Virus record (IMG/VR): IMGVR_UViG_3300044759_000050
Span: 1-45,871 of that record
Direction: 5' to 3' (one strand)
Source: a virus
Lineage: Duplodnaviria > Caudoviricetes
DNA length: 45,871 nucleotides
Shown here one piece after another: positions 1 to 45,871 of the stretch. The translations under genes were made by a program, and so were the position numbers. The notes under the pieces were generated by a model. That model was given only the letters and a program-made list of their open reading frames with translations. It made no database searches and was not told the origin of the DNA. How positions within the stretch are numbered: the first letter of the stretch is position 1; the number at the start of each line of letters is the position of its first letter.

Positions 1-43
1 TTTATGACAACGTAGTCCATGGTGATGGCTTCGCTTGTGGTGC
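1..43. repeat. Terminal direct repeat (circular overlap), copy 1
   Basis: 1-43 matches 45829-45871 except at positions 11 and 18 (C here, A at the end). Confidence 0.9.
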
Positions 44-341
44 CACCGGTCGTCGCAAAGGACACCCTGAAGCTGCCATTCGCCACCGCAGTGATGTTGA
101 AGTGATACAGATCAGTACCACCTCGCTGCACCGGTACAATCACGTCGCCGATTTCAACGAGACTGTTAGTCACGGTGAATGAGGCGAATGTTGCTGAGCC
201 TACCGCTGTAAACAGCGTGATGGCGCCAGACATCTTGTGCAGCGTTACACCAGTTGTTCGACTAGTAAGCTGCGTGATAGCTCCCCAAGCGGCACTGCGA
301 TAGCCGATCGGAGCGCCCTTGGATAGAAAGCGACCTGTCAT
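1..341 (-). CDS. Probable small virion structural protein spanning the contig junction (stop at 45813-45815 after circularisation)
   Basis: Hand translation from ATG 341: MTGRFLSKGAPIGY...TQLTSRTTGVTLHKMSGAITLF...SEAITMDYVVIK, continued by GQAK* at the other end. Beta-rich; lies between portal and scaffold; not in the ORF track. Confidence 0.7.
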   Translation of the reverse strand, partial: MTGRFLSKGAPIGYRSAAWGAITQLTSRTTGVTLHKMSGAITLFTAVGSATFASFTVTNSLVEIGDVIVPVQRGGTDLYHFNITAVANGSFRVSFATTGGTTSEAITMDYVVI

Positions 342-342
342 C

Positions 343-537
343 TTATTGGTTCCTGCTAGCAGCCTTTGCGTTGGGGCTTTCGGCCTTGGTCATTGAGCCC
401 ACGCCGCTAGCATTTGTCGCGTGGGGGCCAAGATCCTTGCCCATGTTCGTAGCCTTCGGTTCCCCGGAACCGAGTGGCTTACATGCATAGTTGACGGTGG
501 CGTTTTGGCTCTTGCCCTTATAACCCTTGTCGTGCAT
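343..537 (-). CDS. Hypothetical protein (head module)
   Basis: 64-aa ORF tightly packed between its neighbours. Confidence 0.6.
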   Translation of the reverse strand: MHDKGYKGKSQNATVNYACKPLGSGEPKATNMGKDLGPHATNASGVGSMTKAESPNAKAASRNQ

Positions 538-538
538 A

Positions 539-697
539 TCAGTAGCCCTTCACAGCTGGTTTCGGCTTGCGCTTTTTCGTCACACCCTTGACAGTGCCCT
601 TTGCCTCGCTGGCATAGAACGTCGAAACGCCCTTCTTCTTGCCATATGTGTCGATCATAGCGGTCTTGATCTTACGACCCTTTTTGTTTAATGGCAT
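539..697 (-). CDS. Small Lys-rich protein (52 aa)
   Basis: Hand translation MPLNKKGRKIKTAMIDTYGKKKGVSTFYASEAKGTVKGVTKKRKPKPAVKGY; start coupled to the portal stop (TGATG). Confidence 0.7.
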   Translation of the reverse strand: MPLNKKGRKIKTAMIDTYGKKKGVSTFYASEAKGTVKGVTKKRKPKPAVKGY

Positions 698-2667
698 CAC
701 TGGGCTCCTGCATTAGGTGGCATACCTGTCGCGGGGTTGGCCATTTGCTGAACTTGGGCCGTTTGAGGATCGCCACCTGTTCCAGCACCGCCCGCCACAC
801 CAGCCGCCTGACCCTCGCTGTTCTTTGGACCGCCAAGCAGCAGTTGGCTCGCCCCCTGCGTGCGTTGCAGCTCAGCATTTTGGGCATCCTGGCTCTGCTC
901 TTCGAGCGACTTGGTGATGTGCTCAGGATTGAGGTTCAGCGTTCTCATAAGCTGACGAAGCGTTTTCTTGGGACTGAACTCAGCCATGAACGCCTGGAAC
1001 AGCATCGGGTTAGTTCCGACTGCTTGCAGCAGCGCCATGATTTTCTGGAAGTCCAGCGCCCGCGTCATGGTGGCACTAAGCCCATTCACCATAAACTGTG
1101 CCTTACCAGCAAACAGCGCGAATCGCTCTTCGGGCTTTGCTCGCATGATCATCAGTGCGATCTTGCGATCAATTGAGCTGGCAAAGGCTGTCTCAGGGAT
1201 GTCCTCAGCGTTCTGCAAGATGCACAGCCACGCTTTACGGAGTGCCACACTCATGCACATGTTCTCCAGATCGGCCACAATGCCGTCAAGCATCAGGTTC
1301 TGGCTCTGGCTCGACTCAAGCACCTCCGTCGCGAGCACTTGCTTGGGGGGCAAGGCCCCCAGCTTCAGCTCGTTGGTCATAGCCGCCTGGGCGAATTCCC
1401 TGTTGAGCAGTTCGAAGATCGCCATTGCGTCATTCGGAACGTCGCCTTCGCTGACCGTTTCAAGCACCTTCGCATTGTGCGGCAGCGTTTGCTTGACAGC
1501 CAGCGTCTGGCCCTGACGGATGCCGCCCTCGACCTGGCTGGGGTCGTCAAGGTCTTCGATGCGCAGCTGCTTGATGCCCCACACAGCGGCCAAGCCGCCA
1601 TCCAACATGAGGTTGAACATCTCATTGATAGCCAGGTTAAGATCGCTGGCATGGTCATAGATGGCTTTGTGCCAGACGCTATGAGGCACACGGATCAATG
1701 GTGCGACAACGAAGGGGCTCTCTTGATGCCAGAACGGATTTGGCTCGGGAGGTCTGATGAGGAATCGCTCATTGGCAACAGTCGCTACCACATTGCGGTG
1801 AACGATCTGGCCATTATTGTCCAAGATGGTTCCCCAGAACTCATCAAGCAGGACACGCTTGCGAAAGCTCGGCTTAGTCGTCTCGTCCTGGTTACGGTCG
1901 CTCTCGCTGAGCTTTTCATCCTCCGGCCGTTCATGATCCATGCCTTTCAGCTGTGCGACGGCCGCCTTGTCGTAGATCCCTTCCTCCGCCATGGATTCGA
2001 CTTCGTGCAAATCGCGCTCGACGCGGTGGATCTCATACAGGCCGGCGCCAGTGGGGTCAGGGTAGTAGTCCTCAACGCGCACAAGGTCAATTCGTAGCTT
2101 CCATTCCTTGATCTCCTCAGTCTTGAGCGTCGGCTCGCCATCTTCATCCAGTTCAAAGTTGAACTTGCGCTTCGTCATGAAGCCGCCATGAACCTTCAGG
2201 ATGATGAGCGTTTTAAGCAGCGCCTGCTTCACGCTGTCGCTCACAACAGTGTGAAACTTCTCAGGGTTGTTGTTAGGTCCCCACAGATCATCCAGGAACG
2301 GCTTAAGCATCGCCCTGATCTGTGCGCCGTCGATGAACTGGCTCAGCGTCGGATCGATGTTAACACTGAAGTAGTCACCAAACTGGATCATGCCGCGCTT
2401 GATCAGCGCAGCCAACTGCTCCACGCTGACAGGCACCTTGGGCAGGAACTCAGTCGACTGACCATCCTGCTTATGGCTGAAGTCTTGTCGGCCTAAATAG
2501 GTGTCCCAATTGCGATTGTTCTGGCTCATGCGCGTACGCCGCGCATCCTCAGATTCCTGCCGAAACCTGTTGATGATGCCAATAACGCCTATCCCGCCAG
2601 GGATCTGCTCATCAAACTCAGGTCTCGGGCCCACTCCGCTCGCGATTGGATTTTCTGTTAAAGCCAT
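697..2667 (-). CDS. Portal (head-tail connector) protein
   Basis: ~656 aa just downstream of TerL; podovirus portal-like segments (DYYPDP, EFWG, NPFWHQESPFV) and a Q/G-rich C-terminus; start placed at MALTEN. Confidence 0.85.
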   Translation of the reverse strand: MALTENPIASGVGPRPEFDEQIPGGIGVIGIINRFRQESEDARRTRMSQNNRNWDTYLGRQDFSHKQDGQSTEFLPKVPVSVEQLAALIKRGMIQFGDYFSVNIDPTLSQFIDGAQIRAMLKPFLDDLWGPNNNPEKFHTVVSDSVKQALLKTLIILKVHGGFMTKRKFNFELDEDGEPTLKTEEIKEWKLRIDLVRVEDYYPDPTGAGLYEIHRVERDLHEVESMAEEGIYDKAAVAQLKGMDHERPEDEKLSESDRNQDETTKPSFRKRVLLDEFWGTILDNNGQIVHRNVVATVANERFLIRPPEPNPFWHQESPFVVAPLIRVPHSVWHKAIYDHASDLNLAINEMFNLMLDGGLAAVWGIKQLRIEDLDDPSQVEGGIRQGQTLAVKQTLPHNAKVLETVSEGDVPNDAMAIFELLNREFAQAAMTNELKLGALPPKQVLATEVLESSQSQNLMLDGIVADLENMCMSVALRKAWLCILQNAEDIPETAFASSIDRKIALMIMRAKPEERFALFAGKAQFMVNGLSATMTRALDFQKIMALLQAVGTNPMLFQAFMAEFSPKKTLRQLMRTLNLNPEHITKSLEEQSQDAQNAELQRTQGASQLLLGGPKNSEGQAAGVAGGAGTGGDPQTAQVQQMANPATGMPPNAGAQ

Positions 2668-2869
2668 ATGAGGGTCCCCGGATGGGCTTCCTGGCAAATT
2701 TTCGTTCCGCTACGCATCCGATATGTACCCCTATGAGGGACTCTGCTTTGGTTAGCAGCCCCGTTCCGCACACTCGGCACAGGCGAGGCGGCGGACCGCC
2801 GCTGGCGGCGGGTTTTTGACCATTGCGCCTGTCTCTATTCTTTGTCAATGGATCGGTTGGCATGGACAT
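2618..2869 (-). CDS. Small putative Zn-binding protein
   Basis: CRVC...HIGC pattern; lies between terL and portal. Confidence 0.5.
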   Translation of the reverse strand: MSMPTDPLTKNRDRRNGQKPAASGGPPPRLCRVCGTGLLTKAESLIGVHIGCVAERKFARKPIRGPSYGFNRKSNRERSGPET

Positions 2870-2885
2870 CCCAATGGGTTAAAAT
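2857..2885 (+). promoter_or_regulatory. Sigma70-like promoter antisense to the structural operon
   Basis: TTGGCA-17 nt-TAAAAT. Confidence 0.65.
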
Positions 2886-2891
2886 TCATGG

Positions 2892-2954
2892 ATCAGGCAT
2901 CCTCCCACCGGCCTGGTAAGCGTCACTTATGGAGCCTAGCGGCTCCATTTTTTT
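2892..2954 (+). ncRNA. Candidate ~63-nt small RNA with a CCUCCC loop hairpin followed by a terminator
   Basis: Upstream promoter; stem ATCAGGC/GCCTGGT (one G-U pair) with loop ATCCTCCCACCG; intrinsic terminator; no plausible ORF. Confidence 0.55.
2929..2954 (+). terminator. Rho-independent terminator
   Basis: ATGGAGCC-TAGC-GGCTCCAT followed by a T run. Confidence 0.8.
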
Positions 2955-2978
2955 GCGTAGCGCTCCCTCGCGGTACAC

Positions 2979-4490
2979 CTATCGCGAGTAGCGCGGTCCG
3001 AGGAGCGCTTGGGGGATGTGGCGGCTCGCGCCACGGGCTGTCAGGTGACGAACTGGCTCCTCAAATGCCAGCCAGTAACCTCCCGCGTCAGAGGTGTGAG
3101 TGCGATGGAAGTACGGATCTTTACGATTGCGGATCTTCAGAATGCCGCCCCGCTGGTCACGGAGGACGCCTTCGAAGTCGGCTATCAGTTCATGGCAAGA
3201 GGGATCAATCTGAATGCGCACCGTACCTTCCTCGTCCCTCAAGAGCCTATTCACCGCATTGACTCGATCGGGCACTCTAGGATTCTCAGGGGGGATGCGC
3301 AAGCGGATCGGAGATCCGTATTGCTTCATCTCATTCATAATAGTCCAATAGTCGCTCTTGCCAGTTTGGCCCGTGCGGCCTTCACCGGTGGCGTCCCCGT
3401 AGAGCCACACCTCACCCCCATGAGCGGGGAATGCATCATAAAACAGATTGCACATGTCAGGGATGTTGCCTTCCTCAAGCACGAACTCCCTGTAGAAGCG
3501 ATAAACCGCTCCATCCACCTGACCCACTAGGCTAACCATCGGCTCAACGTTGAAATCCCACATCCACACCAGCGGCCGGCGATGGCTGATCTCGGGCATA
3601 TCCCTTGCAACATGGATCATCCGATCAAAGCCATGGTACGCCCTGGCCCCCGACATTCCAGGTAGCCACTCGCCCTCAAGGCGGATGCGACGGCTGGCCG
3701 TGCCCTCTGGATAGATGGCTTCAAGGCGCTTTATCTCGTCGCGCGGAATGCCAGGGTTGTCATAGATGCTGGCCCCAAACAAGCCCACGCCGGGTAGCTG
3801 ACCGCTTTGCCAGGGCTGGATGATCTTGGGAAAGACCCAGCTTGTCGTTACGAGCTTGCCCTCGGGCGGAAGGATCGTTGCCGTGCAGAAAAAGATTAGG
3901 GGCATATTGCCCACCCGGATGACGGCCTCCTCGTAGATCTCCCAAGGATGCTCCTCGTCCATGTGGAACCAATCCTTGTCAGCGCCCTGATATTTCTTCC
4001 TCCCTGATTCCGCCGACTTGAAGCCGATTATGCTGCCATTTTTCAGCTTTAAGATCTGGTTCTCAGTGCTCCAGCTCTCAATCTCATGCTTTGGGATGAA
4101 GGGGGGGTACTTTCCAGTAATTCGGTATCCGTTGTCGAAGTACTTAGGCTGAATAACATCTCGTGACGTTGGAAAGTCAAGAGCAGATACCCATCCGGAT
4201 GTAGATCGATCGATAACTTGGACGCTCGCCCCGGCGTGAGGGGCAGGTTTGGCATCCTGTCGGCCAAAGCGTGCAAGAGTTGAGCCAATGTATGCACCTG
4301 CGTCACTTTTTCCACTCCTGTTAGCTGCAATAAACCAGTTTTCTTTCTTCTTCCGCTGTAAAACGCTGTCAACGAACACTTGTTGCTTAGCGTGCAGCGG
4401 AAAGTTCTTGAGCGGATCGCCCTCCCGGCGCGTCTTGAGTTCATCAGCCATCAAGAGGAAACGTTCTTGTTGTTCTCGCATCGTTGGCAT
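2979..4490 (-). CDS. terL: Terminase large subunit
   Basis: Walker A AANRSGKS, Walker B WFHMDEE, RNase H-like nuclease motifs WDFN, YGDATG and HTSDA; upstream of portal; exact start uncertain (4481-4538). Confidence 0.93.
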   Translation of the reverse strand: MPTMREQQERFLLMADELKTRREGDPLKNFPLHAKQQVFVDSVLQRKKKENWFIAANRSGKSDAGAYIGSTLARFGRQDAKPAPHAGASVQVIDRSTSGWVSALDFPTSRDVIQPKYFDNGYRITGKYPPFIPKHEIESWSTENQILKLKNGSIIGFKSAESGRKKYQGADKDWFHMDEEHPWEIYEEAVIRVGNMPLIFFCTATILPPEGKLVTTSWVFPKIIQPWQSGQLPGVGLFGASIYDNPGIPRDEIKRLEAIYPEGTASRRIRLEGEWLPGMSGARAYHGFDRMIHVARDMPEISHRRPLVWMWDFNVEPMVSLVGQVDGAVYRFYREFVLEEGNIPDMCNLFYDAFPAHGGEVWLYGDATGEGRTGQTGKSDYWTIMNEMKQYGSPIRLRIPPENPRVPDRVNAVNRLLRDEEGTVRIQIDPSCHELIADFEGVLRDQRGGILKIRNRKDPYFHRTHTSDAGGYWLAFEEPVRHLTARGASRHIPQALLGPRYSR

Positions 4491-4520
4491 GTGACAAATC
4501 CATCCATTTTGTGCCATAAT
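4491..4520 (+). promoter_or_regulatory. Sigma70-like promoter divergent from terL
   Basis: GTGACA-18 nt-CATAAT; -10 overlapped by the inverted repeat TGTGCC/GGCACA. Confidence 0.5.
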
Positions 4521-4526
4521 GGGCAC

Positions 4527-4883
4527 ATGAGAGCGCATCAGTCAACCAAAACATGCACAGATTGCGATCGGCGACTGCCAATCGAAGAGTTTCCATGGCA
4601 CAGAACCTACGGCGTGCGCATAAGCTACTGCCGAGAGTGCAGAAACACGCGCAATCGCGTTTACATGACGGCATTCAGACGCAGGCACGGTACACCACTA
4701 GCGATTCGCTGGAGTGCCAATGAGAAACAAGTGCTCTGGCTCGTGCATTTCATGGGCCTAACACCCCGCTATGCGGCTGAGCTAATCAACAAGGACGTTC
4801 GAGCAATCAAAACCTACGCAAGTCAGATGATGGGCCTCGGCCCCTGGAGGTGTTATGAGCGAATTTATGCAAGAGCCAAGTGA
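4527..4883 (+). CDS. Zn-finger plus Myb/SANT-like HTH DNA-binding protein
   Basis: CTDC...CREC followed by RWSANEKQVLW...AAELINKDVRAIK. Confidence 0.6.
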   Translation: MRAHQSTKTCTDCDRRLPIEEFPWHRTYGVRISYCRECRNTRNRVYMTAFRRRHGTPLAIRWSANEKQVLWLVHFMGLTPRYAAELINKDVRAIKTYASQMMGLGPWRCYERIYARAK

Positions 4884-5100
4884 GGCCGAGATCCGCTCGA
4901 CCGGCGATCCACGCAACTTCATTGCACACCGGATGCGGCTAGCCGCATCCATTGACGAGTTCGAAGCCAGAATGGATATGCTTGAGTTCGGATTTACCAT
5001 CGCCTCCGGCGATGGTCCACACATCGGCTATGCCGACGCATCCCAGCGGGCTTCGCCCGGTGAGGTAATTCCGCCTGGCGGAACGGGGCAGGAGCCCTGA
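4855..5100 (+). CDS. Hypothetical protein
   Basis: 81 aa; GGAGG upstream. Confidence 0.6.
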   Translation: MSEFMQEPSEAEIRSTGDPRNFIAHRMRLAASIDEFEARMDMLEFGFTIASGDGPHIGYADASQRASPGEVIPPGGTGQEP

Positions 5101-5126
5101 CCAATCCCGGGCTCCGCCCGGATCGG

Positions 5127-5155
5127 TTGACGTCGCCCCGGCCACGCGCCATAAT
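5127..5155 (+). promoter_or_regulatory. Sigma70-like promoter
   Basis: TTGACG-17 nt-CATAAT upstream of ORF 5199. Confidence 0.7.
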
Positions 5156-5198
5156 GCACCCGCATCCTAAACAGATGACATTAAATGGAGACTAACTC

Positions 5199-5537
5199 AT
5201 GAAAAGAGTACTCGTAGCTGTGGCGCTTATGGCGGTGTCACTCACGGCCGTAGCCACTGATGCCGAGGCTCGGCGCCGCGGTGGAAGCCGCACACGTACA
5301 GAAGTCATCACTACGGCTCCGGCGATCGATCCGCTGACGCTGATGCTTCTCCTCGGTGGAGGCGGCGCACAGTCGTTTGGTGTTGCTAATGCCGGCTTTG
5401 GCGCTAACCCGCTAGCACTGTTGCTGGGCGCACAGTCGTTCGGTGGTCAGACCACGATCATCGAAACTGAGCGCCGCGGCCGTCGCGGTGGATGGCGTCG
5501 TGGCCCTGGTCCTCGGCCGGTGCCTAGCAGCCGCTAA
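5199..5537 (+). CDS. Secreted Arg/Gly-rich protein
   Basis: Sec-type signal ending AEA; GGAG RBS; internal repeat PLxLxLLG..AQSFG. Confidence 0.75.
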   Translation: MKRVLVAVALMAVSLTAVATDAEARRRGGSRTRTEVITTAPAIDPLTLMLLLGGGGAQSFGVANAGFGANPLALLLGAQSFGGQTTIIETERRGRRGGWRRGPGPRPVPSSR

Positions 5538-5586
5538 CAGTCAACCCACGCTGGCCCCCCGGGGCCAGCGCAAGGAGACAAAACGC

Positions 5587-5856
5587 ATGAAACATCTTGT
5601 TACCCTCGGTTTAAGCGCTGCGCTTCTGGCCGGCAGCTTTGCCGCCGCAGATGCTCGTGAGGGACGTCGCCACTGGCGTGGGGATCGAGGCCGCACTACG
5701 ATCATCCAACAGCCCGCAGTTGGCATTGGCGTTGGTTTGGCAGGCTTGCTGCTCTTGCAGCAGATGTCACAGCCACAGCAGCAGCCTGTCTATGAGCAGG
5801 AGCCCCTCCCCAGGGAGCCGAAGCTGCGGCGTGACAGCCCCATTCCGCTAAAATGA
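5587..5856 (+). CDS. Secreted/membrane Arg-rich protein
   Basis: Signal peptide ending ADA; AAGGAG RBS; hydrophobic GIGVGLAGLLLL segment. Confidence 0.75.
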   Translation: MKHLVTLGLSAALLAGSFAAADAREGRRHWRGDRGRTTIIQQPAVGIGVGLAGLLLLQQMSQPQQQPVYEQEPLPREPKLRRDSPIPLK

Positions 5857-5942
5857 ACCTGCGGTTCATCACACAAATCCTGAGGGGGGTCGCTGCCGCA
5901 ACGCGGCCCCCAGTTCCACGCAACCCGGCGAAGAGGCCTAGC

Positions 5943-6296
5943 ATGAGCACACCTGCGCCTACCCCCGTTATCGAGACGCCTACGCCGTGGTACAAAAGCA
6001 GGACGCAGCTTCTTAGCGTCGCGCAGACCGCGATTGGCATTGCCCTAGCGCTGGGCTTGATCAGCCCTGATGCGGGAACCATCCTGAAGGGGAACCTGGA
6101 GCCAATCATCGGGGGCGTTGTGGCGCTAGTCGGCCTCGTGGCTCTGTGGACGCACCCAACCGAGGTGCAAAACACGGCCAAGACAGCGGCTGCTGAAGCG
6201 ACCGTCGCCACGGCTGAGGTTATTGTGGATAAGGATCGCTCAGGGGGCCCTGGAGCGGCTGCGGCCGCTGCCAAGGAGATTATCAGGGACGCATAG
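5943..6296 (+). CDS. Putative holin
   Basis: PWYKSRT motif followed by two hydrophobic helices; in the same cassette as the endolysin. Confidence 0.6.
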   Translation: MSTPAPTPVIETPTPWYKSRTQLLSVAQTAIGIALALGLISPDAGTILKGNLEPIIGGVVALVGLVALWTHPTEVQNTAKTAAAEATVATAEVIVDKDRSGGPGAAAAAAKEIIRDA

Positions 6297-25782: not shown

Positions 25783-26053
25783 AACTCGCAGGTGGAGCGA
25801 TGGCGAAAACGCCATCTTGTGGGACTGCGAGTTCATGGATGACGCCCTCCGTCGCCTTCCACACCGCTCCAAGGGCTCGATCCGCCAGCACTGCTGGAAC
25901 CACAACATACCCTACCCACTGACGAGGGGAAGCCGCTACTATGAGCACTATGTACGAAGACGGAAATCCCAGCTCGAAGCTCGTGGTCTTAGGCCAGGCA
26001 CCCGGCCGGGAGGAGGCGAAGCGGAACCTGCCACTGGTGGGACCGTCGGGTGA
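25763..26053 (+). CDS. Myb/SANT-like HTH protein
   Basis: RWSDGENAILW...LPHRSKGSIR; overlaps the polymerase start. Confidence 0.55.
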   Translation: MENRTNKTRRWSDGENAILWDCEFMDDALRRLPHRSKGSIRQHCWNHNIPYPLTRGSRYYEHYVRRRKSQLEARGLRPGTRPGGGEAEPATGGTVG

Positions 26054-27569
26054 GGTGTTCCACGATTGCTTGGGGCTAGCCGGCATCAGCCGACGTGACG
26101 TCTATATCTTAAACATCTGGGAATGCGTCGTTTATACCGATGCAAAGACCGGCACCATCTTCAGCACAAACGGAGGACCTCCACTGTGGACAAAGAAAGG
26201 CTTCACCGAGTACGGCTTGGAATTAGCTCAAGGCACGCTAGAGCGCTTGAGGCGATCTGGAGCCAATTGCATTCTGGCGCTTGGACAGCAAGCCCTGGAA
26301 TTATGCACCGGAAAGTCCGATCGCATTATGAAGTGGCGGGGTTCACCCATGGTCAGCTTAGATCGTACCGGTGGGAAGAAGTTGATCCCAACTGTACACC
26401 CGGCAGCGACTATCCATGGCGTTTACCTGTGGAGATACTTGATCATCAGCGACATGATCAAGGCGAAAGCGGAGTCGACGCACCCCGAGCTGGTCCTCCC
26501 ACGCCGAGACATATTGATCCGGCCGACGCTGAACGAGGCTCTGTACTTCATACGAATGTGCCAGCGAGCGGACCGGGTAGCCACCGACCTGGAGGTCGTC
26601 AACCATCAGATTAGCTGCTTCAGCCTATGCACCCAGGTCGACGAGGGGATCACGATTCCCTTGACCCACGAACACGGTGCTTATTGGGACGAGGGTGACG
26701 AAGCCCTCATCTGGCTTGAATATGCTAAGCTGATGGGTGATCCCAAGATCATGAAAATCAACCAGAACATGGTTGGCTTCGATGCAGTGTTTATGCTGCT
26801 GCAGAACAAGATACGCGTGCGCGGAGCGATCGGCGATCCGATGATTGCCCAAAGCCTTCTGTATCCTGAGTTCCTGAAGGGCATTGACTTCCAGGCCTCA
26901 ATGCACACACGCGAGCCCTATTGGAAAGACGAGGGCAAGATGTGGAAGAACGAAGGGGGTGACTTTCCGACATTCTGGAGGTATTGTGGCAAGGACGCAT
27001 GTGTTGCCATGGAGCTGTGGGACGTACACGCTGCCGAGCTAACGCGCCGGGGCATGTGGGACACCTACAACGAAACCGTCGAGATGATGGACCCCCTGAT
27101 CTACATGACGCTCAAAGGCCTAAAGGTGGACAAGAATAAGCTGGAAACCACCAAGGCTGACATCGAGCAGCAGATCGATGTGCTGGAAGCAGAGCTGATC
27201 GAGGTCGCTGACTATCCGTTCAACGCATTGAGCAGCGCCCAGTGCGCGAAGTACTTCTATGCGCACAAGGGCTTGCCTGCATATAAGAATGCCAACGGCG
27301 GCGTCACAACTGATGACAAGGCCATGAGCCGCATCTTCCGTAAGACCGGCTGGCGTGAGGCCAAGATCGTGCAAGAGATCCGTAACTTGCGTAAGCTGAA
27401 GGGCACCTACTTGGAGATTGAGTTCGATGCGGATTATCGCTTGAGGTGTACATGGAACCCACGCGGGACTTGGACAGGCCGACTGAGCAGCAGCAAGACC
27501 ATTCTTGGTACAGGTACGAATCTTCAGAACCTCGACCCAAGGTTCAAAGGCTTCATAGTGGCCGACTAG
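25941..27569 (+). CDS. DNA polymerase A, N-terminal part: UDG-like domain, 3'-5' exonuclease and thumb
   Basis: UDG motifs GQAPG..E..P.VG.SG and HPAA; Exo I DLE, Exo II N..GFD, Exo III YCGKD; TGRLSS...NLQN then a stop after FIVAD. Confidence 0.9.
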   Translation: MSTMYEDGNPSSKLVVLGQAPGREEAKRNLPLVGPSGEVFHDCLGLAGISRRDVYILNIWECVVYTDAKTGTIFSTNGGPPLWTKKGFTEYGLELAQGTLERLRRSGANCILALGQQALELCTGKSDRIMKWRGSPMVSLDRTGGKKLIPTVHPAATIHGVYLWRYLIISDMIKAKAESTHPELVLPRRDILIRPTLNEALYFIRMCQRADRVATDLEVVNHQISCFSLCTQVDEGITIPLTHEHGAYWDEGDEALIWLEYAKLMGDPKIMKINQNMVGFDAVFMLLQNKIRVRGAIGDPMIAQSLLYPEFLKGIDFQASMHTREPYWKDEGKMWKNEGGDFPTFWRYCGKDACVAMELWDVHAAELTRRGMWDTYNETVEMMDPLIYMTLKGLKVDKNKLETTKADIEQQIDVLEAELIEVADYPFNALSSAQCAKYFYAHKGLPAYKNANGGVTTDDKAMSRIFRKTGWREAKIVQEIRNLRKLKGTYLEIEFDADYRLRCTWNPRGTWTGRLSSSKTILGTGTNLQNLDPRFKGFIVAD

Positions 27570-27570
27570 G

Positions 27571-27780
27571 ATGCGTGTCAAAAGGCTTGATCAAAACGGA
27601 ATACGCTACTACAATCGGCGGTGGTGCAGTCAGGTGGTGGTGTCTAGCTACTTTCCTAAGGCTAAGCCCTGGCGATGTAAGACGTCGGCCAATTGGCTAA
27701 TCGACGATGTGCCGTACTGCAATCGGCACGCTGGGCTGATGGCCCTAATTCACATGGAGGACGAGCATGAGAGACATTGA
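27571..27780 (+). CDS. Small putative Zn-binding protein inside the split polymerase locus
   Basis: C...C...YCNRH; coupled to its neighbours. Confidence 0.55.
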   Translation: MRVKRLDQNGIRYYNRRWCSQVVVSSYFPKAKPWRCKTSANWLIDDVPYCNRHAGLMALIHMEDEHERH

Positions 27781-28030
27781 TTCAGTGTTGCGAGACGTGG
27801 GCGAGGAGTTCTCGCGTGCAGTCAAGAAGTTCCCACGCTCCTTCGTGAATGCACACGAAGGTTTCTCCGTGCTGTATGAGGAAGTCGACGAGCTGTGGGA
27901 CGAGGTCAAGGCGGACAATCGCGAACGTCAGCTCGCCGAGGCTATCCAAGTGGCTGCCATGGCTGTGCGGTTCGTGGTCGAGCTGAGCGGCCGTGACCGC
28001 AATGAGGAGGAGGGGCGCAATGCTAGTTGA
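27767..28030 (+). CDS. MazG-like NTP pyrophosphohydrolase
   Basis: EGFSVLYEEVDELWDEV...EAIQVAAMAVRF; GGAGG RBS. Confidence 0.75.
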   Translation: MRDIDSVLRDVGEEFSRAVKKFPRSFVNAHEGFSVLYEEVDELWDEVKADNRERQLAEAIQVAAMAVRFVVELSGRDRNEEEGRNAS

Positions 28031-28907
28031 GTTTGATCTCGCGGGGGCCGAGTGGGTCATCGTCGCATACCTCGCCGACGATGCCAACATGCTGAGCGTC
28101 GTCAAATCCGGCCGCTCGCCCCATGTGGCCACCGGCGCCCTAATCAGCCGCTGCCCTGAGGCGCTGGTCATCAAGGAGCATGAGTTGCTTGGCTCCATGA
28201 CTGACCCAGATGGCCTGCTCACGATGCGAAAACGGGTCTTGCCAGAGCTGTTTGAGGGCGACTACTTCATCCCGCGGTCGATGACCATCAGACAGGCTGG
28301 CAAGAAATCTAATCATGGCTTGAACTACAACATGAAGTACCGGCGCTTTGCACTTGAGAATGAGATGCCTGAAACCGACGCTAAGCCCATCGTGGAGCTG
28401 TACAATGATGAGGCGTATCCAGGCATACCTCGCACGTTCCATGCTGACGTACGCAGCGAGCTGAAGACCAATGACCGTACAATCGTGAACCTGCTAGGCC
28501 GCAAAGCCCGCCTGTTGGATCAAGCCGGCTCGGACCTGTGGGACAAGGCGTACGCATTCAAGCCGCAGTCGACCGTCTGGGACATCTGCCGACAGGCCAT
28601 CGTGCGGGCATTCAACAGCACAGACCCGCTGTTCGAACCCATGCAGTTGAATGCCCAGGTACACGACTCTATCCTGTTCAACTATCCCAGCGAGCCGCGT
28701 GAGCGGCTCATGGCCTTTGCCAGCCGGATGGTCGAGTTGATGAGCGTGAAACTCGTGGCTAAGGGCCACGAGTTTGTGCTGGGGGTGGATGTGAAAGCTG
28801 GCCCCAACTGGGGCCAGATGGAGAAGCTTGTACTACCCAAAGATATCTCTGAGGAGTGGCGCCCTAGGGACACCGCTGGTGTCCCCCTGATCGGGGCGAC
28901 TATATAG
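28020..28907 (+). CDS. DNA polymerase A, C-terminal catalytic part
   Basis: Motif A DLAGAE; motif B RQAGKKSNHGLNY; motif C VHDS; G.NWG; own AGGAGG RBS. Confidence 0.9.
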   Translation: MLVEFDLAGAEWVIVAYLADDANMLSVVKSGRSPHVATGALISRCPEALVIKEHELLGSMTDPDGLLTMRKRVLPELFEGDYFIPRSMTIRQAGKKSNHGLNYNMKYRRFALENEMPETDAKPIVELYNDEAYPGIPRTFHADVRSELKTNDRTIVNLLGRKARLLDQAGSDLWDKAYAFKPQSTVWDICRQAIVRAFNSTDPLFEPMQLNAQVHDSILFNYPSEPRERLMAFASRMVELMSVKLVAKGHEFVLGVDVKAGPNWGQMEKLVLPKDISEEWRPRDTAGVPLIGATI

Positions 28908-45828: not shown

Positions 45829-45871
45829 TTTATGACAAAGTAGTCAATGGTGATGGCTTCGCTTGTGGTGC
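45829..45871. repeat. Terminal direct repeat, copy 2
   Basis: 41/43 identity to 1-43. Confidence 0.9.

Follow-up and report, generated by a model that had tools for sequence, protein, structure and literature searches.

A Clade-Specific Antisense Promoter–Terminator Unit Predicted Beside a Small Zinc-Finger Gene Between the terL and Portal Genes of an Uncultured Phage

Results and Discussion

Comparison of related phage junctions indicates that a clade-specific antisense promoter–terminator unit, placed next to an overlooked zinc-finger gene between the terminase large subunit gene (terL) and the portal gene, is a real element of the window, the window being the entire record (~46-kb; 45,871 nucleotides) of an uncultured phage. 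The predicted RNA of ~63 nt could act in cis as an antisense gate on zinc-finger/portal translation, a reading put forward tentatively and with rather less than even confidence. The features used below are the following.

697..2667, minus strand: portal protein gene (PF23899 SU10_portal, E 2.6e-10; also phrog_1216)
2618..2863, minus strand: small CxxC...HxxC zinc-finger gene between terL and portal, conserved in 64/64 junctions
2843..2848, minus strand: TTGACA, 8 bp back to back with the plus-strand −35 box, from comparison of junctions
2845..2905, minus strand: GGAGG (2905–2901) and a 14-codon upstream ORF (2889–2845), a candidate cis target read from the sequence
2857..2885, plus strand: sigma-70-type promoter TTGGCA-17-TAAAAT, antisense to the late genes, from pattern and conservation in the clade
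2892..2954, plus strand: predicted RNA of about 63–64 nt (5′ hairpin, linker, terminator), from folding and comparison
2892..2917, plus strand: 7-bp hairpin with one G-U pair, from folding
2899..2910, plus strand: 12-nt C/U-rich loop with CCUCC at 2901–2905, predicted unpaired
2929..2954, plus strand: intrinsic terminator, an 8-bp G/C stem (2929–2948) and then a T/U run to 2954, from pattern
2979..4538, minus strand: terL (phrog_2, E 1.8e-14)

The Phage and Its terL–Portal Junction

An ORF scan of the window placed the replication genes on the plus strand and the packaging, head and tail genes on the minus strand; the true terL start is probably at about 4490. No cultured phage close to the window was found with terL (best matches below 30% identity) or in the polymerase and capsid searches (best matches about 30% identity), and the sole host hint was one Geminicoccaceae MAG contig carrying a terL 59% identical to that of the window. 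No integrase was detected among the scanned ORFs (48 against PHROGs, 30 + 30 against Pfam), and the GC skew of the window was uninformative. Sigma-70-type promoters precede early gene clusters in this phage and in its relatives too. The last 25 bases of the window (45847–45871) are a copy of bases 19–43, which fits a circular assembly opened within the head module. One DNA sequencing run, perhaps that from which the record stems, revealed no variants.

For comparison, 74 terL and 38 portal loci were collected, 70 of the 74 terL loci extending to the portal gene; after addition of the portal loci with both genes and removal of duplicates, 64 distinct junctions including the window were obtained. 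A small CxxC...[CH]xxC ORF, defined by a loose pattern, lies between terL and portal in all of them, and residues C29, C32, C50 and Y66 are invariant in an alignment of 43 zinc-finger proteins. The PxYG codons of the zinc-finger gene overlap the portal ATG in another frame, the YG codon reading TATG in 52/64 junctions, and in 47/64 the frame of the zinc-finger gene either runs open across the terL stop or begins at most 10 nt away. These three counts indicate that an overlapping terL–zinc finger–portal chain is the usual state in the relatives. Nothing convincing was found for the protein family in Pfam, PHROG or PDB, the only likeness being to unnamed Atlas clusters. What emerges from the comparison is an unnamed zinc-finger gene whose place between terL and portal is constant in a large group of uncultured phages. 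A similar PxY motif ends many terL genes, where it overlaps the next ATG.

Inserts at the terL–zinc finger junction were also seen outside the clade described below. Three members of a distant clade (L055, L054 and L052) have their own short non-coding insert, which in L055 carries an antisense terminator-like hairpin and U run, possibly an independent unit of the same kind. Longer inserts, apparently with small same-strand ORFs, occur in L007, L087, L008, L011 and L050, so that the junction tolerates insertions.

The initial annotation had described the unit as free of ORFs in the gap between terL and the portal operon. On the plus strand the predicted transcript contains no ORF start, but the gap is mostly occupied by the minus-strand zinc-finger gene (2618–2863), whose ATG at 2861–2863 overlaps the −35 box of the antisense promoter, so that only about 110–130 nt of the gap are non-coding; in addition, the GGAGG-led 14-codon ORF on the minus strand (2889–2845) crosses the promoter.

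The Antisense Promoter and Its Clade

The promoter consists of TTGGCA (2857–2862), a 17-nt spacer and TAAAAT (2880–2885), and the start site, placed with the usual 6-nt discriminator, is presumably near 2891–2892. The plus-strand transcription unit claimed from the window alone gains comparative support: its promoter lies where it had been described and is kept in 4/4 members of the clade, and its terminator in 3/4. Taken alone, the promoter, terminator and CCTCCC patterns show no excess over chance, with 5 promoter-like sites in positions 1–6000 vs 3.2±1.5 in shuffles, 6 terminator-like sites in the same region vs 5.8±2.7, and 24 occurrences of CCTCCC in the window vs 22.5 expected. The unit rises above chance because the promoter is kept in relatives.

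These relatives form, with the window, a clade of four (window, L005, L001 and L002; terL of the relatives 79–83% identical to that of the window) in which a non-coding insert of 93–251 nt, with the promoter inside, separates the terL stop from TTGACA (130 nt in the window, 251 in L005, 93 in L001 and 148 in L002). They make up one side of one branch in the terL tree (91/94; 92% of bootstrap trees), which was computed from the 29 rows (of 64) with sufficient length and ≥64% identity, the branch support of 91/94 being under the starred threshold. Their sister L014 lacks the insert, and its terL TGA overlaps the zinc-finger TTG.

Six key promoter positions (TTG; T, A and the final T of the −10 box) are identical in 6/6 pairs of the four members, while of the other 28 positions of the promoter region only 7–14 match per pair, and the four-fold synonymous sites of terL are 25–46% identical within the clade. 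The chance that 8 conserved columns out of 34 include all six key positions is 2e-5; the initial annotation, made on the window only, had already fixed the six positions, and protein similarity was the basis on which the relatives were collected. Like all conservation counts in this clade, these refer to n = 4 with shared ancestry. The pattern indicates that the antisense promoter is under selection, the other positions and the synonymous sites being at or near saturation.

A loosely defined antisense promoter pattern occurs in 7/64 junctions vs 44/500 control windows, and only the window, L005, L001 and L002 have the antisense promoter 8 bp behind TTGACA. Searches for further members returned the same phages. 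The promoter pattern gave six matches in viral contigs (the three known relatives and three without terL or portal) and 90 in metagenome contigs, two of them with terL/portal and both identical to L001 and L005; a pattern free of the antisense-promoter assumption gave 16 matches, three with terL/portal, all already known. Searches with portal (38 loci), capsid (80 kept of 130) and the terL C-terminus (14) yielded no further member with the back-to-back pattern.

The promoter-like motifs could instead belong to the minus strand, mirroring the translation-initiation region of the zinc-finger gene (start codon, G-rich Shine–Dalgarno (SD) sequence and A/U-rich enhancer), with no plus-strand transcript being made. 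The overlap of the −35 box with the zinc-finger ATG at 2861–2863, an in-frame ATG 9–21 nt upstream of TTGACA in 4/4 members and the chance frequency of such consensus matches in positions 1–6000 agree with this explanation. It is nevertheless improbable, as TTG and TAAnnT are fixed to one another at 17 nt and not to the in-frame ATG, the conserved bases are spread over codons for different residues, and the U run lies on the plus-strand side of the terminator in 3/4 members.

The Back-to-Back Promoter on the Minus Strand

TTGAC is present in 7/7 of the closest junctions and in 18/64 overall, vs 54/689 control windows, and its TTG is in frame with the zinc-finger gene in the 8/8 junctions shown. 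On this comparison TTGACA at 2843–2848 is likely the −35 box of a portal-operon promoter, with a −10 box that is degenerate in the window genome; in L002 and L021 the promoter scores 10/12 of the consensus.

With the two promoters back to back, the function may lie in interference between them: the plus-strand promoter would bind polymerase 8 bp from the portal-operon −35 box and damp the portal-operon promoter, the RNA would be a by-product, and the terminator would shield terL. No other reading covers all four clade members, L002 included. The spacing of 8 bp does not change, in contrast to the RNA body, which measures about 27–70 nt or lacks a terminator, the synonymous positions of the mRNA-strand element are kept in all four members, and the 10/12 matches in L002 and L021 point the same way. 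However, the minus-strand −10 box is degenerate in both the window and L005, the fixed spacing is perhaps a mere effect of the coding sequence, and the SD–ATG–frame pattern (3/4) and the 5′ hairpins (2/4) described below are left unaccounted for, so that interference is regarded as somewhat unlikely to be the function of the unit. Two −35 boxes so close together could be mutually exclusive, and this explanation is compatible with the antisense reading. The PR/PRM promoters of lambda are a parallel for such interference; the literature search gave no supporting paper.

The Predicted RNA in the Window and in the Related Phages

The 7-bp hairpin at 2892–2917 with an exposed loop, noticed in the initial annotation, was recovered by folding, its 12-nt loop being predicted unpaired, and the 8-bp terminator with its U run was likewise confirmed at 2929–2954. 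The predicted RNA folded with z = −2.86, one of 200 shuffles being as stable. A plus-strand terminator follows the promoter in the window, L005 and L001, with predicted RNAs of about 64, 70 and 27 nt, respectively, while L002 has kept the promoter with no plus-strand terminator and has two mRNA-strand terminators instead. L005 carries a 5′ hairpin with a different C/U-rich loop, CAGCCCUCUU, of which the CCCU part is predicted open. In L001 the promoter and terminator are kept with no loop hairpin, a 5′ loop hairpin like that of the window being absent in both L001 and L002. Among the four clade members CCUCC is thus found in one (the window) and a C/U-rich loop in two.

The RNA bodies of the window and L005 are weakly alike (34/2000 shuffles as good), as are those of L001 and L002 (19/2000); the remaining four of the six pairwise comparisons were no better than shuffles. 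A hand alignment of the window and L005 stems on the shared GGT-(A)AGCGTC suggested two double changes, which were discounted as covariation because MAFFT gives another register in which the stems are not aligned and because a 6-bp stem arises in 290/5000 shuffles. The RNA body was matched in G001–G005 only by the flanking TTGACA region and one 14-nt word; elsewhere it gave one phage match at E = 0.4 and none in plasmids. A hairpin-pattern search of viral contigs gave a single match, apparently within coding sequence and regarded as accidental.

Arrays of 15-bp imperfect palindromes, GGG-N9-CCC, stand directly after the terL stop in L002 and L005. That of L002 (G001:C1:10722-10820) comprises five palindromes with an exact 21-bp period and A/T-run spacers, and that of L005 (G002:C1:7861-8005) eight palindromes at 17–20 bp; they might serve as iterons for protein binding, as stabilisers of 3′ ends or as terminators in tandem. 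Of such arrays the window shows no more than degenerate traces.

From the arrays in these two inserts it follows that part of the C run of the window may be repeat debris, the profile scores being weak. The whole RNA could then be a functionless read-out: the promoter fires, and the RNA is copied from a fast-changing G/C palindrome array where terL and antisense transcription meet, its C run being a decayed repeat half. Besides the arrays themselves, this explanation can point to two 9-mers common to the window and the L005 array, one of them at 2890–2898 in the hairpin arm, and to the four of six body comparisons at shuffle level. Its weakness is that the two best repeat-profile matches of the window rank only 147 and 245 of 45,857 positions and that a promoter kept intact despite saturated divergence calls for a reason; a functionless RNA is accordingly rated improbable.

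A Candidate Cis Target on the Opposite Strand

The complement of the loop reads GGGAGG and lies 11 nt ahead of ATG 2889. Among the five ATGs of the insert this one has the most stable SD pairing (−10.2 kcal/mol), and it opens a 14-codon ORF ending at the TGA within TTGACA, so that its stop and the in-frame zinc-finger TTG overlap. L005 has the same ATG/SD arrangement (15 codons, −6.3 kcal/mol); the corresponding ATG of L001 (−8.4 kcal/mol) shares its frame with the zinc-finger gene, and in L002 no SD-led ATG with a frame leading into the zinc-finger gene was found. The combination of an ATG, an SD of ≤ −6 kcal/mol and a frame into the zinc-finger gene, criteria set post hoc, thus occurs in 3/4 clade members vs about 1% of shuffles, and in these three (window, L005, L001) the antisense-opposed ATG sits 41–45 nt upstream of TTGACA.

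The same three members have their own promoter and terminator opposite the putative initiation region. L002, the sole member without the SD-led ATG, is also without the plus-strand terminator and has terminators on the mRNA strand. No mRNA-strand terminator was found in the window or in L005, so that terL read-through is plausible there.

The cis-antisense gate tentatively preferred here would work as follows. Most relatives have the overlapping chain, this one clade carries the insert with the promoter, and in three of its members a minus-strand ATG with an SD-like run may feed the zinc-finger gene, its frame reaching that gene through a stop overlapping the TTG in two and in frame in one. 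Early in infection host RNA polymerase would make the short RNA, which, as the exact complement of the SD region on the terL read-through mRNA, would block ribosome entry and perhaps invite double-strand cleavage through RNA–mRNA pairing; the perfect 63-nt duplex is computed at −134 kcal/mol. The antisense RNA would in this way mask the entry site that replaced direct coupling to terL, and zinc-finger, portal and head expression would be delayed relative to terL. Under the cis reading the anti-SD look of the loop comes from its mirroring an SD of the opposite strand, and the loop is free to drift because its target drifts along.

Several observations weigh against the gate. The ATG/SD/frame criteria were chosen after the data had been seen, with n = 4 and shared ancestry, and the SD stands far from its ATG (by 11 nt in the window, by about 9 in L005 and by about 13 in L001). 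The zinc-finger gene itself offers an in-frame ATG, weakly SD-led (−4.0 to −5.9 kcal/mol) and beyond the reach of the RNA, and in L001 a weak mRNA-strand terminator-like hairpin covers the proposed ATG. The upstream peptides are without visible conservation, and L002, which keeps the promoter without such a target, is not accounted for by the mechanism. The preference for pyrimidine–purine at start sites may also partly account for the CATG beside the −10 box.

Trans Targets and the Comparison with Cuckoo RNAs

The unit was originally read as an anti-SD small RNA silencing host mRNAs or GGAGG-led phage genes, with action in cis as an alternative. In a trans-acting RNA the loop would seed on host or phage ribosome-binding sites, and the loops of sister phages would follow different targets. 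CCUCC falls in a hairpin loop in just 0.25% of random 37-nt windows of this genome (any 4-nt anti-SD piece does so in 4.4%), the loop region fits the cuckoo motif at 8/9 positions, and a C/U-rich loop on a 5′ hairpin is seen in L005 too, together with the weakly similar body noted above. Moreover, for orthologues of the window and L005, the loop-to-start-region energies are correlated (Spearman 0.34, p 0.011).

This correlation reflects SD strength, since own and swapped loops gave equal means (−8.9/−9.5 vs −9.3/−9.2 kcal/mol). The real loop paired with the 55 orthologous start regions, which were picked automatically with some starts mis-chosen, no better than composition-keeping shuffles, its best energy being reached by 188/200 and its mean by 138/200 of them, so the proposed silencing of GGAGG-led phage genes finds no support; GGAGG itself occurs in 10/55 of these regions. 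In a genome-wide duplex scan, computed without an accessibility term, only the cis complement stood out, no trans target being prominent or shared. At one mismatch, the cuckoo motif occurs 15 times in the window vs 10.9 expected, and the window and L005 stems are not aligned in register by MAFFT. The refutation test set in the initial annotation weakens the trans reading as well: the loop is lost while the terminator is kept in L001, L002 keeps only the promoter, the L005 loop differs, and the presence of CCUCC in one of four members also argues against a conserved trans function. An RNA acting in trans through its loop is hence judged unlikely.

Nor did the proposed likeness to the cuckoo RNAs hold. 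In the accessible text of the source (PMC4615179), cuckoo / alpha-r14 RNAs have two to four adjacent hairpins, each with the loop motif CCUCCUCCC. The RNA predicted here shares with this family (CcsR, NfeR1; RF02344), as that text presents it, a C-rich anti-SD-like loop, a 26-nt hairpin, a stem of at least 6 bp and the 8/9 motif. It has, in contrast, one motif-bearing hairpin and a terminator; the motif is inexact (CAUCCUCCC at 2898–2906, its first C in the stem; the comparison is with the motif of the text, apart from the variants in the figure), and the RNA belongs to a phage and not to an alphaproteobacterial chromosome. Whereas the cuckoo loop is conserved on varying stems, CCUCC is not conserved in the sister phages (1/4). 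Rfam gave no match at the gathering score on the window, and at E ≤ 10 on the four loci only three chance-level matches, none on the unit of the window and none to cuckoo / alpha-r14. By the published definition, as far as it is given in that text, the predicted RNA is thus not a cuckoo RNA.

A further possibility is a moron-like small RNA gene at the terL–portal junction: in a lytic-looking clade, the exposed anti-SD loop would silence host mRNAs in trans and be swapped between sisters in keeping with different hosts or targets, and the RNA would also gate zinc-finger/portal translation in cis. This combination is quite unlikely. Of the two modes of action named in the initial annotation, the one in cis best fits the data by inference from sequence; the unit of the window most likely acts in cis, and the predicted RNA is likely to damp the phage's own head-gene expression rather than host genes.

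Comparison with Known Antisense Systems

Sok/mok-hok of plasmid R1 and CopA/tap-repA, as described in the accessible text of PMC4393325, have a small cis-encoded antisense RNA that blocks a translationally coupled upstream ORF. The proposed gate resembles them in placing an antisense RNA over an upstream ORF coupled to the real gene, a coupling that is putative here, and differs from what that text describes in that its target would be a late-gene chain (zinc finger and portal) and not a toxin or Rep. The predicted RNA has no sequence or Rfam similarity to Sok or CopA.

In Pseudomonas phage PAK_P3, early antisense RNAs in the structural region have been proposed to hold back late genes; in the accessible portions of these reports, 19/20 of them are intragenic, and the mean length of the small ones is 176 nt (PMC4933390; PMC10914365). 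The gate reading fits that proposal, antisense transcription in the structural region being common to both, while the unit of the window, compared with the RNAs described there, is intercistronic, ~63-nt, provided with its own terminator and back to back with a second promoter. Lambda OOP and PaQ, P22 sar and P1 c4 are likewise short phage antisense RNAs, of which PaQ inhibits late gene expression and c4 pairs around a ribosome-binding site via loops (PMC5415839, PMC12197685, as far as accessible). In those sources they are lysis–lysogeny regulators of temperate phages, whereas the putative target here is the packaging module. A literature search that covered few subscription papers found neither this element nor an anti-SD phage RNA at the terL–portal junction described.

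Small RNAs of lytic phages to which a role has been assigned are few, to our knowledge, and the way in which simple podophages that lack an RNA polymerase of their own set the timing of terminase relative to head assembly is poorly charted. If the cis gate is the true reading, this clade would have swapped a direct terL-to-zinc-finger coupling for a switchable entry site under antisense control, and a Sok-like logic would be applied to virion assembly. The analysis also shows that the anti-SD loop of a predicted antisense unit can be the mere mirror of an SD on the opposite strand.

Other Observations in the Window

A second plus-strand terminator-like hairpin is located at 2796–2817, within the zinc-finger gene and upstream of the antisense promoter. 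The DNA polymerase (phrog_17; 25941–28907, plus strand) is encoded by two ORFs split by an 87-aa ORF, all three with counterparts in G002. At the 5′ end of terL (4491–4545), two promoter-like sites face each other with overlapping −10 boxes, GTGACA-18-CATAAT on the plus strand and TTGACT-18-CATTAT on the minus strand. The plus-strand site stops 6 nt short of ATG 4527, the start of a 118-aa ORF with cysteine pairs and without a Pfam match, which may therefore be leaderless.
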